Virus record (IMG/VR): IMGVR_UViG_2693429605_000008
Source: a virus
Taxonomy: Duplodnaviria > Heunggongvirae > Uroviricota > Caudoviricetes
Reading direction: 5' to 3' (one strand)
Length of the DNA stretch: 7,279 nucleotides
Shown here: positions 1,446-3,570 of the stretch, piece by piece
How positions within the stretch are numbered: the first letter of the stretch is position 1
Layout of the letters: every line of letters starts with the position of its first letter
The notes under the pieces: model-generated
Seen by the model: only the letters and a program-made list of their open reading frames with translations
The model's database searches: none
Told to the model about the DNA's origin: nothing
Translations under genes and position numbers: made by a program

Positions 1446-1979
1446 ATGAGCGCAAAAATCAAATACGGCCTGTCAGCTGCTGTTCTGGCGCTGATTGCTG
1501 CAGGCGCGTCTGCTCCTCAGATACTTGACCAGTTTCTGGACGAAAAAGAGGGTAACCACACAACGGCATACCGCGATGGTTCCGGCATCTGGACCATCTG
1601 TCGGGGGGCCACGATGGTGGATGGAAAACCCGTTTTTCCCGGTATGAAACTGTCGAAGGAAAAATGCGACCAGGTCAACGCCATTGAGCGTGATAAGGCG
1701 CTGGCATGGGTGGAGAAAAACATCAAAGTGCCATTGAGCGAACCCCAGAAAACGGGGATCGCGTCATTCTGTCCGTACAACATTGGTCCCGGTAAGTGTT
1801 TCCCGTCGACGTTTTATAAACGAATTAATGCAGGTGATCGCAGGGGAGCGTGTGAGGCGATTCGCTGGTGGATTAAGGACGGTGGCAGAGACTGCCGTAT
1901 TCGTTCAAACAACTGCTACGGTCAGGTATCCCGTCGTGACCAGGAGAGCGCGCTGGCGTGCTGGGGTATCGACAGATAA
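1446..1979 (+). CDS. R: Endolysin, glycoside hydrolase family 24 (T4/lambda-type lysozyme), SAR (signal-anchor-release) type
   Basis: 177 aa. The N-terminus YGLSAAVLALIAAGASAP is a weakly hydrophobic Ala/Gly-rich SAR-like segment. The catalytic region DEKEGNHTTAYRDGSGIWTICRG carries the E, D and T of the lysozyme triad. It pairs with a pinholin as in phage 21, and resembles E. coli RrrQ/RrrD by recall. Confidence 0.92.
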   Translation: MSAKIKYGLSAAVLALIAAGASAPQILDQFLDEKEGNHTTAYRDGSGIWTICRGATMVDGKPVFPGMKLSKEKCDQVNAIERDKALAWVEKNIKVPLSEPQKTGIASFCPYNIGPGKCFPSTFYKRINAGDRRGACEAIRWWIKDGGRDCRIRSNNCYGQVSRRDQESALACWGIDR

Positions 1980-2073
1980 GCAGAATATTTTGCTGAAAAA
2001 TAAGGCATGGCCACGCGGGCGGATAACATGAAATCCTGCGAACTGGCGAAACGTAAGTGAATAAAAGTAAAAA

Positions 2074-2108
2074 CCCCGTTTGTTGGCACCAAGCGGGGGT
2101 TTTGTGTT
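2074..2108. terminator. Bidirectional rho-independent terminator between endolysin and Rz
   Basis: CCCCGTTTG (2074-2082) pairs with CAAGCGGGG (2090-2098): 9 bp including one G-U pair, with a 7-nt loop TTGGCAC. It is followed on the + strand by GTTTTGTGTTT and preceded by AAAAGTAAAAA, which is a U-tract for the minus strand. Confidence 0.6.
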
Positions 2109-2178
2109 TCCTGACTCCGGAAAAGTCAAAGGAGAAAGTGTGTTTGATTTTAGCAAACTGATTCGGGAGATTCGAGTG

Positions 2179-2277
2179 ATGGCTGAAAAATTATCCACCT
2201 GGAAGTTCATTCTTATCTGGCTGGTGTTTGTGATTATGGCCTCCGGTTATTTCATCGGTCAGATACGCTGGTGGTGA
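2179..2277 (+). CDS. Small single-pass membrane peptide of 32 aa (45 aa if it starts at GTG 2140), function unknown
   Basis: [32 protein letters not shown] has one roughly 20-residue hydrophobic helix. SD GGGAGA (2165-2170) lies 8 nt before ATG 2179. The stop TGA (2275-2277) is 1 nt before the Rz ATG at 2279. An alternative start is GTG 2140 with GGAG at 2131-2134. Confidence 0.4.
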
Positions 2278-2278
2278 A

Positions 2279-2746
2279 ATGAACCGCGTACTGTGCGTGG
2301 TCATCATTGCCCTGCTGGTGGCCTGTGGTGCGCTTAGTCTGGGGCTGAATCATTACCGTGATAACGCCATTACCTACAAAGCCCAGCGCGACAAAAATGT
2401 CAGAGAACTGAAGCTGGCGAACGCGGCAATTACTGACATGCAGATGCGTCAGCGTGATGTTGCTGCGCTCGATGCAAAATACACGAAGGAGTTAGCTGAT
2501 GCGAAAGCTGAAAATGATGCTCTTCGTCGCAAGCTTGATAATGGTGGCAGGGTGCTCGTCAAAGGAAAATGCCCTGTGCCATCCTCAGCCGAAACCTCCA
2601 GCGCCTCCGGCATGGGCAATGATGCCACCGTCGAACTCTCTCCAGTTGCTGGACGAAACGTTCTCGGTATCCGGGACGGAATTATCCGCGACCAAACAGC
2701 ACTGAGAACGCTTCAGGAATACATCAGGACGCAATGCCTTCGATGA
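2279..2746 (+). CDS. Rz: Rz i-spanin (inner-membrane spanin subunit)
   Basis: 155 aa with N-terminal [26 protein letters not shown], then a charged coiled-coil-like periplasmic region. Same size class as lambda Rz, and Rz1 is embedded in it. Confidence 0.92.
2499..2705 (+). CDS. Rz1: Rz1 o-spanin (outer-membrane lipoprotein), wholly embedded in Rz in a different frame
   Basis: Signal peptide with lipobox MVAGC, followed by the Pro-rich segment [16 protein letters not shown] typical of Rz1. It lies entirely inside Rz (2279-2746). The exact start Met is uncertain (ATG 2499 or a downstream Met). Confidence 0.8.
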
Positions 2747-2964: not shown

Positions 2965-3252
2965 ATGGATGAAGAATATCGTAAAGACCTGCAATTGTGG
3001 TTTGGCCTGACGCATGCGTCGTTCTGCGTGATGCCGAGAGTATTCATGGAGGCTATGCCGCAAGAATGGCAAGAGAAGATGGCGCAGTTGCTTTTTGAGT
3101 ATGGCGACACGATCAAAACGGATGTCTGCGGAGTTCACAGCTGTTTCGTTACTGCCAAAGACGGCAACAACCGCTTTATGAGGATGCCAGAAGATATTCT
3201 GAACTATCGTCATCCCCGGCGTGAGTTCATCGAATCATTTCTGAAGAAGTAG
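2965..3252 (+). CDS. Hypothetical protein, 95 aa (accessory ORF A)
   Basis: Plausible coding composition. The overlapping minus-strand ORFs (2802-3116, 2902-3213) have low-complexity, Cys/His/Arg-rich translations and are less plausible. Only a weak SD (AAAGG) precedes the ATG. No family recognised. Confidence 0.5.
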   Translation: MDEEYRKDLQLWFGLTHASFCVMPRVFMEAMPQEWQEKMAQLLFEYGDTIKTDVCGVHSCFVTAKDGNNRFMRMPEDILNYRHPRREFIESFLKK

Positions 3253-3345: not shown

Positions 3346-3570
3346 ATGGAACTGATAAATGGACGGCCAGGCAGAGATTTTATAGTGGGAACATATACCT
3401 ACTCAGAAATTAAAGATCTTAACTTCATGGCTAAGGAAGAGAAAAGAGCTCGTGAAGAGCTAAAGCATCGGGGTTACGAATTGGCGTATATCAAGGCGGA
3501 CTCTGAATGTAACGGGATGTTTGTCAGGGCGTACCGGGTCTATACTGACAAAGCGCCATCTAATGTCTAA
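3346..3570 (+). CDS. Hypothetical protein, 74 aa (accessory ORF B)
   Basis: SD GGGAGG (3336-3341) lies 4 nt before ATG 3346. The ORF-track start at 3280 is a TTG and is disfavoured. Mixed-charge sequence MELINGRPGRDFIVGTYTYSEIKDLNFMAKEEKRAREELKHRGYELAYIKADSECNGMFVRAYRVYTDKAPSNV. No family recognised. Confidence 0.5.
   Translation: MELINGRPGRDFIVGTYTYSEIKDLNFMAKEEKRAREELKHRGYELAYIKADSECNGMFVRAYRVYTDKAPSNV

Follow-up and report, generated by a model that had tools for sequence, protein, structure and literature searches.

A mobile module with a small membrane peptide gene, a terminator-shaped hairpin and a predicted antisense RNA in the late operons of Escherichia coli prophages

Introduction

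Among the type I toxin-antitoxin (TA) systems, SymR is an antisense RNA with a promoter that lies within the first codons of symE, and it covers the start codon and the Shine-Dalgarno (SD) sequence of that gene. The prophages of enterohaemorrhagic Escherichia coli (EHEC) encode many short terminator-ended small RNAs (sRNAs) at moron sites of their late regions, and those of the HnrS, AsxR and AgvB kind are 51-66 nucleotides (nt) long and often antisense to late genes (PMC4104026, PMC13502914). Here, a small unit was investigated which lies between the endolysin gene R and the i-spanin gene Rz in a 7,279-nt stretch of viral DNA (Caudoviricetes; IMG/VR record IMGVR_UViG_2693429605_000008), referred to below as the window. 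The unit combines the gene of a 45-amino-acid (aa) membrane peptide, a terminator-shaped hairpin and a predicted antisense RNA on the opposite strand. As judged from its relatives, it is probably an uncharacterised toxin/antisense-RNA-like module of many E. coli prophages.

The arrangement suggests a type-I-TA-like module in which a membrane peptide and a cis-antisense RNA of about 75 nt share a bidirectional terminator inside phage late operons, and we give this reading an even chance. Comparison of the sequences establishes a coding gene, a selected hairpin, the co-mobility of the parts, the conservation of a −10 motif and an internal SD sequence with its ATG. The parts of the module are as follows, with positions given for the window.

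2060-2073: A-tract 5′ of the hairpin, AATAAAAGTAAAAA, a U-tract when read on the minus strand; 5′ boundary of the module
2074-2098: GC-rich hairpin with a 9-base-pair (bp) stem (2074-2082 with 2090-2098) and a 7-nt loop, in the shape of a bidirectional intrinsic terminator
2100-2109, plus strand: T-tract 3′ of the hairpin, TTTTGTGTTT, the plus-strand terminator tail
2129-2134, plus strand: SD sequence AAGGAG, 5 nt 5′ of the GTG
2140-2277, plus strand: peptide gene (phrog_6632), GTG start, 45 aa, TGA stop at 2275-2277
2147-2155, minus strand: candidate extended −10 element TGCTAAAAT, the reverse complement of the plus strand inside codons 3-6
2062-2141, minus strand: predicted cis-antisense RNA of about 72-80 nt, with a predicted transcription start site at about 2139-2141
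2165-2181, plus strand: internal initiation signals, with GGGAG at 2165-2169, a 9-nt gap and ATG at 2179-2181 (codon 14)

All statements of the original prediction about the letters themselves, that is the limits of the open reading frame (ORF), the hairpin, the tracts and the −10 complement at 2147-2155, were found to be correct.

The peptide gene

About 185 loci were compared overall; those gathered for the peptide gene, about 175, were taken from public genomes, phage sequences and viral contigs. In PHROGs v4 the peptide gave a full-length profile match to phrog_6632 (function unassigned), with residues 1-45 against positions 1-45 of 45 and E = 1.2e-29. The aligned start codon was GTG in 162 of 174 loci and TTG in six, the ORF was 45 codons long in 162 of the 174, and an (A/G)GGAG SD sequence was present 5-6 nt before the start in every variant. 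Among 37 unique ORF sequences the column entropy by codon position was 0.60/0.23/0.86, and a median pairwise dN/dS of 0.17 together with a pooled pN/pS of 0.30 indicated purifying selection. On this evidence the ORF is a genuine 45-codon gene with a GTG start. An ORF of 32-45 aa with one transmembrane (TM) segment, stopping 1 nt before the ATG of Rz, had been described before; it is present, its length is now settled as 45 aa, and the peptide is conserved in related prophages.

A profile search of 1.84 billion representative proteins retrieved 41 clusters only, each of 32-86 aa, and protein homologues with as little as 31% identity were found in unrelated genomic contexts. Judged from these searches, the peptide family is real but narrow. 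The peptide had no match in Pfam (E ≤ 0.1), NCBIfam or PADLOC, and PGAP leaves the ORF unannotated in most genomes, listing it now and then as the hypothetical protein WP_000459345.1.

The TM helix spans residues ~22-41 (nt 2203-2262), where the 19-residue Kyte-Doolittle window peaks at 2.0. There are five positive charges on the N-terminal side of the helix and one on the C-terminal side, from which we infer an N-in/C-out topology by the positive-inside rule. The N-terminal segment (residues 2-21) is conserved, amphipathic and positively charged and follows the pattern SK-x-I-x-E-x-R-x-M-x-E-x-L-x-x-W-R/K-F. It is followed by a variable hydrophobic helix and then often by a C-terminal RWW; in distant members the C-terminus differs.

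A shorter frame of 32 aa runs from the ATG at 2179 to 2277. This ATG at codon 14 was invariant in the close set and lost in just one distant member, Glu10 was encoded by GAG in all 10 lineages with Glu at that position, and GGAG or GAGG was located 6-10 nt before the ATG in most lineages. The pattern suggests a second, 32-aa product without the amphipathic N-terminus, and the internal start likewise looks functional as far as its conservation tells.

The hairpin

In every case the peptide gene is accompanied by the hairpin. A terminator scan called it on the plus strand, and its folding energy in the window is −16.3 kcal/mol on the plus strand and −12.4 kcal/mol on the minus strand. The mean energies among the relatives were −19.8 (plus) and −17.5 (minus) kcal/mol, so that both strands fold. 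When 54 unique versions were analysed with RNAalifold, double compensatory changes were detected in 7 of the 11 hairpin pairs, the A:U pairs joining the A-tract and the T-tract were invariant, and no other plus-strand structure was supported. The A-tract was kept in 54 of 54 unique close variants and in eight distant lineages, and the T-tract was likewise conserved. The distance from the hairpin to the start codon was 35-45 nt in 11 of 11 lineages, eight of which share only 31-48% protein identity. By its compensatory changes the hairpin is a selected structure, and its GC stem, 5′ A-tract, 3′ T-tract and folding on both strands give it the shape of a bidirectional intrinsic terminator. The presence of U-tracts on both strands, as claimed in the original prediction, was thereby confirmed.

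No plus-strand promoter was detected between the hairpin and the SD sequence by a simple scan or by inspection, and the DNA 5′ of the hairpin is unrelated from context to context. The peptide would therefore be transcribed only by read-through from the surrounding operon.

The window itself carries one extra G at position 2099, after the 3′ arm (CGGGGG, where nearly all relatives have CGGGG), which makes its hairpin slightly less stable than those of the closest relatives (−16.3 against −18.9 to −21.6 kcal/mol).

The minus-strand promoter motif and the predicted antisense RNA

The sequence TGCTAA(A/T)AT, read on the minus strand inside the first codons of the peptide gene, was invariant in 166 of 166 close loci. 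The bases kept are the TG, T−12, A−11, A−8 and T−7, and the sole variable base is the one at −9, which is a low-information position of the sigma-70 −10 element. On the coding strand of the close set, Ser5 was always encoded by AGC, Lys6 always by AAA, codon 3 always ended in T, and codon 4 was TTT or ATT and never TTC or ATC; for Arg43, by contrast, four codons were in use. Synonymous divergence rose along the ORF, from 0.19 (codons 2-12) through 0.55 (codons 13-22) to 0.70 (codons 23-45). A plus-strand RNA structure as the cause of the hyper-conservation of 2140-2165 was considered and rejected, as RNAalifold gave the terminator hairpin only.

Of 11 lineages, 9 have the pattern TGnTAnnnT at the corresponding position, with protein identities as low as about 35%. 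The motifs of the distant lineages were TGCTAAGAT in L179 and L187, TGCTAGAAT in L180, TGATAAACT in L182, TGATAGGAT in L185 and TGCTAATGT in L186, and TAAGAT and TATGAT, each with an adjacent TG, were present in L183 and L184, respectively. In these distant lineages Ser stayed AGC in five of five, and the Ile replacement was ATC in two of two, by which the G of the TG is retained. The amino acid of codon 4 varies (F/I/L/S), with T at the third position in 7 of 8 distant lineages and with the rare Leu codon CTT used twice. As a control, TGNTANNNT occurred 9 times in 209 homologous positions versus 4 times in about 4700 others, counted on both strands of the same modules. The codon choices run against usage expectation and appear to follow promoter logic. 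Comparison of the relatives thus supports an antisense promoter at this site.

From the −10 motif to the far side of the hairpin the distance was 73-85 nt across the lineages. The predicted RNA would be complementary to the start codon, the SD sequence and the leader, and would end at the hairpin followed by UUUUUACUUUU. In its predicted fold the CU-rich 5′ part is unpaired, and a U-tailed terminator follows. The best-conserved stretch of the RNA is the complement of the peptide's own SD sequence and start; for the module as a whole, conservation is lowest in the middle of the RNA (2110-2127). At one locus (L046, ~2475-2490; alignment A4, columns 55-75) a 7-nt TCCTGAC is duplicated in tandem between the hairpin and the SD sequence, which gives a longer leader and a longer predicted antisense RNA.

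Boundaries, mobility and spread of the module

The conservation profile of 84 unique modules was high over the A-tract, hairpin and T-tract, the SD sequence and the ORF, and had sharp edges; the sequences before 2055 and after 2278 were unrelated among them. According to this profile, the segment ~2060-2277 (hairpin, SD sequence and ORF, about 215 bp) is one mobile unit. The claim of a 300-bp insertion between R and Rz holds in so far as the spacer at 1980-2278 is 299 nt long; the spacer is composite, and only ~2060-2277 is mobile, with 1980-2061 trailing R.

The module was located 3′ of four endolysin types (SAR lysozyme, GH19, CHAP and a 138-aa endolysin), 5′ of Rz-type or DUF2514-type i-spanins, and also 3′ of a P22-Ant-like gene. 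In about 22 of the sampled loci it was inserted between the baseplate spike gene (PF18352 with the GpV apex motif) and the next baseplate (wedge) gene, and in the cultured Salmonella phage SEN34 it sits between baseplate genes with the annotation SEN34_23. It was also found after a lambda K-like tail gene, after the tail-tip gene J, and between a Mu-F-like head gene and a scaffold-like gene. Some distant members adjoin TA genes, namely PrlF/YhaV, ParE, YafQ/RelB and HicB. In the phage contexts examined the module was co-directional with the late genes.

The junction with Rz is close in the window, where the TGA at 2275-2277 sits 1 nt before the ATG of Rz and TGGTGGTGA acts as an SD-like sequence for Rz. 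The TGGTGGTGA-N-ATG junction was present in about 130 of 166 loci, and at the baseplate sites an AAGGAGG of its own precedes the downstream gene. Since the copies outside lysis cassettes lack Rz and are followed by a gene with its own SD sequence, the coupling to Rz is a trait of the lambdoid context and not of the module. No obligate linkage to holin, endolysin or spanin genes was found, as copies exist at baseplate, tail, head and TA sites, SEN34 included, and the module is therefore not lysis-specific. The proposal of an accessory lysis regulator coupled to Rz is weakened by the copies in the SEN34 baseplate operon, K/J-like tail and Mu-F-like head contexts and TA islands without Rz. It had also been suggested to look for homologous cassettes in which the endolysin gene directly abuts Rz; the module is absent from the Qin cassette, where rrrQ overlaps rzpQ, and from the mEp460 cassette, where R ends and Rz starts within a stretch of 196 nt.

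By BLAST, the spacer had matches in 2007 of the 5426 complete E. coli genomes, and in 871 of these the match was nearly full-length. The module is present in H-19B and in many phages with Shiga toxin (Stx) genes of the types Stx1a, Stx2a and Stx2c. In the Stx1 phage CP-1639 (L002, 2016-2500) stx1B is followed almost at once by the module and Rz; the interval from stx1B to the module holds only two minus-strand hypothetical ORFs, no holin or endolysin is annotated, and the lysis cassette appears to be partly deleted.

Other small ORFs were noticed in R-Rz gaps. The gap of vB_EcoS-569R3 (L012, 690-1176) holds four tandem tiny single-TM ORFs. The first is a variant of phrog_6632 that differs at the C-terminus; the last ends in IRWW followed by TGATATG and Rz. 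A 48-aa ORF lies between ant and Rz in 933W (L011, ~3421-3568, unannotated) and in Sakai Sp10 (L177, 3125-3271, ECs_1966), and SPN3UB (L013, 1562-1672) has a 36-aa TM ORF that overlaps the endolysin stop. Going by the phages compared, the lambdoid R-Rz junction is a hot spot for small membrane ORFs. In an E. fergusonii prophage (L008, 3736-3908) an unrelated small hydrophobic ORF ending in VKWW and TGATATG precedes the module and is followed by an apparent remnant of a spanin start, which suggests repeated recombination at a 'WW-stop-ATG' junction.

The surroundings of the spacer in the window

The window is part of a lambdoid prophage late region, with the following features around and within the spacer.

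856-1071: S21-type class II holin, pinholin-type
1076-1390: DUF1327/YdfR protein
1446-1979, plus strand: SAR-type endolysin/lysozyme R (PF00959, E = 3.7e-24; phrog_7 endolysin; SAR-type N-terminus)
1980-2278: R-Rz spacer, 299 nt
1980-2059: non-coding segment trailing R, outside the mobile module and common to ant-type R-Rz gaps
2279-2746, plus strand: i-spanin Rz (PF03245, E = 1e-31)
2499-2705: o-spanin Rz1, embedded within Rz (PF06085, E = 3.8e-21)

The R-trailing segment (~1980-2061) is also present in 933W and recognisable in the Salmonella phage SPN3UB; 1980-2065 shares 84% identity with the gap of Sakai Sp10. It is not kept in the other genomic contexts of the module. A 17-aa ORF at 2008-2061 was rejected as coding, as an indel breaks the frame in SPN3UB, and a minus-strand ORF of 101 aa (1905-2210) was taken as spurious, for it runs across the hairpin and through DNA that is not conserved.

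On the 3′ side of Rz/Rz1, Nu1-like and then A-like terminase genes follow. A second terminator-like hairpin on the plus strand was observed 3′ of Rz at 2920-2939. The ORF at 2965-3252 (95 aa) may be a truncated gene, since it matches phrog_3527 at the C-terminal positions 139-230 of 233 only; in related prophages (L001) this place is occupied by a KilA-N gene. In Salmonella and Citrobacter prophages with the module (L005, 700-2150; L015, 1-830), tRNA genes are located 5′ of the holin gene, and the same stretches gave repeated matches to the sRNA STnc100 of up to 89.6 bits.

Known prophage sRNAs

Several sRNAs of the Sakai prophages were considered as candidates for the predicted RNA and rejected. 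HnrS (EcOnc10-12, 66 nt) is encoded downstream of Rz in Sp9, Sp10 and Sp12, and its sequence is absent from the window. Both Sp10 and Sp15 have an ant-type gap without the module; EcOnc15 maps between Q and stx1A in Sp15, the gap of which is of this type. EcOnc22 was placed in the I-J gap, where it overlaps a small ORF unit that has no relation to the module. The Rfam models of AsxR, AgvB and Esr41 gave no match on the module.

The unit in the I-J gap of Sakai Sp15 (L188, 2192-2431 in late-gene orientation) is unrelated to the module and of similar build: an A-tract and hairpin are followed by an SD sequence, a 39-aa ORF (MKINVMELFF...) and a second hairpin behind it. EcOnc22, which is Hfq-bound and about 85 nt long by Northern blot, maps to the opposite strand of this unit (Tree et al. 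2014, Table S2).

Proposed mode of action

The module may be pictured as follows. The plus strand would encode a 45-aa inner-membrane peptide with an amphipathic cytoplasmic helix, a TM helix and a C-terminal RWW, and in the window Q-antiterminated late transcription through S, R and the hairpin would yield this peptide together with Rz and Rz1. On the minus strand, the extended −10 element in codons 3-6 would start an RNA of about 75 nt near the GTG; being fully complementary to the start codon and SD sequence of the peptide, it would stop at the shared hairpin, with the A-tract providing its U-tail. In a lysogen, stray transcripts of the plus strand would be halted at the hairpin, and those that leak through would be kept from translation by the antisense RNA. 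Once lytic growth begins, the mass of late transcripts would exceed what the antisense RNA can hold back, and the peptide would be synthesised and enter the membrane. Promoter firing, repression by the RNA and the function of the peptide are what we infer in this scheme, and the role of the peptide is most likely a membrane-active or toxic late function.

The original prediction of a moron peptide under antisense control is partly supported. Its architecture stands, with purifying selection, a compensatory hairpin, a conserved −10 motif and, in some cases, TA neighbours; a plus-strand promoter of its own does not, as there is no room for one. The antisense-controlled, type-I-like function is predicted from this architecture.

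A number of observations weigh against the scheme. The motif TGNTAWAAT occurred at least once in 76 of 200 shuffles of the window and is not unusual in a single sequence, and the hairpin z-scores of −1.4 and −0.9 in the window are within chance for a single sequence; hairpin and motif are rated above chance because they are conserved in relatives. The 11 lineages are themselves homologous and the conserved Ser-Lys forces part of the motif, so that the motif statistics are not those of independent trials. There is no conserved −35 element among the lineages, which is compatible with an extended −10 promoter. The antisense RNA, the translation of the peptide and its toxicity are predictions from sequence. 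The start at codon 14 is outside the reach of the predicted antisense RNA. A terminator-shaped hairpin within essential baseplate operons is hard to square with efficient termination, and the strongly conserved cytoplasmic helix points to a specific partner and not to generic membrane damage. Searches added no support: Rfam 15 (window and six relatives, E ≤ 1) returned no family on the module, sub-threshold rimP-leader noise aside; a literature search by peptide sequence, accession and phrog identifier found no paper; the EcOnc sRNAs checked all map away from the module; and the peptide is absent from the Sakai Ribo-seq small-gene supplement, where Sakai's own carriage of the module is not established.

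Alternative explanations

A plausible, if unlikely, account is that no antisense RNA is made and that the unit is a plain late membrane-protein gene. The hairpin would then be a terminator or an mRNA-stabilising structure, and the 5′ conservation would serve translation, with codons 2-12 conserved for a weak GTG start in an AU-rich, unstructured setting and for the internal SD sequence. The start region is indeed AU-rich and the internal SD sequence and ATG are conserved. AU-richness leaves it unexplained that Ser is encoded by AGC only (never AGT, TCA or TCT) and that the rare CTT is used for Leu at codon 4, and the conserved positions coincide with TG, T−12, A−11 and T−7 while the residue of codon 4 is free. 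The hairpin bears on the question from two sides. In 28 of 35 variants its plus-strand fold is the more stable one, and wobble pairs are tolerated on that strand, which suggests that a plus-strand RNA function is also, or mainly, selected, and which speaks further against the antisense scheme; the upstream A-tract, conserved in every context, is left without explanation if the plus strand alone matters. As to function, the peptide would have an accessory late role, e.g. in lysis timing, in spanin or holin modulation or in superinfection exclusion. Most copies are located in the endolysin-spanin gap with its TGA-N-ATG junction, and the R-Rz gaps of other phages hold arrays of other small TM ORFs, as such a role would have it, but the lysis-specific variants misfit the baseplate, tail, head and TA-island copies.

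Alternatively, the minus-strand RNA might mainly be a trans-acting prophage sRNA, comparable to HnrS, AsxR and AgvB, with a CU-rich anti-SD sequence CUUUCUCCUUUG that targets host or phage mRNAs in the lysogen, and its overlap with the peptide gene would be a coincidence or a side role. The evidence for promoter and terminator counts here as it does for the antisense scheme, the predicted RNA has an unpaired CU-rich 5′ part and a U-tailed terminator, and short terminator-ended sRNAs at moron sites are numerous in EHEC prophages (PMC4104026, PMC13502914). We consider this improbable: conservation peaks at the complement of the peptide's own SD sequence and start and is lowest in the middle of the RNA, the peptide is under purifying selection and always travels together with the RNA, and no Hfq-CLIP (crosslinking and immunoprecipitation) peak is linked to the module.

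A reading in which the ORF is open by chance, within a recombination remnant of lysis cassettes, as its mostly missing PGAP annotation and the absence of a Pfam or NCBIfam family might suggest, is refuted by a dN/dS of 0.17 with its codon-position pattern, by the start, SD sequence, length and stop kept in about 170 loci, and by homologues down to 31% identity in unrelated contexts.

Significance

The module is very common in E. coli and in Stx phages, yet mostly unannotated and without an assigned function. If the antisense scheme is true, it would represent a new and unusually compact design of an RNA-controlled membrane toxin which relies on the transcription of the surrounding operon, as well as a concrete case of a coding sequence with its first codons shaped by a promoter on the opposite strand. 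The late-expressed membrane peptide might then affect lysis, the timing of Shiga-toxin release or lysogen physiology.

We tentatively go one step further, with somewhat less than even confidence, and propose a new family of 'promoterless' type-I-like toxin/antisense modules of about 215 bp that hop among the intergenic sites of late operons, silent in lysogens and licensed in lytic growth. Going by the spacer BLAST, up to a third of complete E. coli genomes would carry such modules, with Stx1 and Stx2c phages among the carriers, and the sRNA, possibly also the 32-aa isoform, would keep the peptide silent in lysogens.

Comparison with known systems

The module resembles type I TA systems such as symE/SymR and hok/mok/Sok in layout only. 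It encodes a 45-aa hydrophobic single-TM peptide and a predicted short antisense RNA, the predicted antisense promoter lies in the first codons of its target and the RNA would extend over the start codon and SD sequence, as SymR does on symE. The two nested in-frame starts recall the mok/hok coupling, and the module is found in prophages and beside other TA pairs. It differs in that the peptide mRNA has no promoter of its own and that the module always runs in the direction of the late or accessory phage operon that holds it, immediately 3′ of a terminator hairpin; SymE, moreover, is not a membrane peptide. No homology to Hok/Sok, Ldr/Rdl, Ibs/Sib, TisB/IstR, ShoB/OhsC, Zor/Orz, DinQ/AgrB or SymE/SymR was detected in Pfam, NCBIfam, PADLOC or Rfam. 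Membership in type I TA is not claimed, because the toxin gene lacks a promoter, there is no family homology, and RNA and toxicity are predicted only.

Like the morons (Juhala/Hendrix; lambda bor and lom, the HK97 gp15 membrane protein, the 933W ant insert at R-Rz), the module is an extra unit between genes that are adjacent in relatives, it occupies typical moron sites (R-Rz, the K/I/J tail region, baseplate) and it contains a terminator. In a classical moron, which the prophage expresses, a promoter, the gene and a terminator follow one another on the same strand; in the module the terminator comes first, ahead of the ORF, and the plus strand has no promoter. The extra DNA of a moron is thus present; a gene with a promoter upstream and a terminator downstream of it is not, as nothing of the module extends beyond the stop codon. 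The promoter-to-terminator order is seen on the minus strand alone, where it applies to the predicted sRNA.

The lysis accessory proteins (S105/S107, S21 68/71, Mu releasin gp25 and P1 LydB) are likewise small membrane proteins of lysis cassettes, and in the window the cassette has an S21 pinholin and a SAR endolysin. As in the dual-start holin/antiholin pairs, two in-frame starts would give products differing by a charged N-terminal extension, and the gene is juxtaposed to Rz. There is no homology to any of these proteins, and the starts of the module are 13 codons apart versus 1-3 in the dual-start pairs; unlike the lysis accessory proteins, the module is also found outside lysis cassettes and has no obligate link to lysis genes.

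The EHEC sRNAs HnrS (EcOnc10-12), AsxR and AgvB are encoded at other loci, HnrS downstream of Rz, and none is known to overlap a membrane-peptide gene. The predicted antisense RNA has in common with them its short length, its end at an intrinsic terminator and its location in the late regions of lambdoid prophages.

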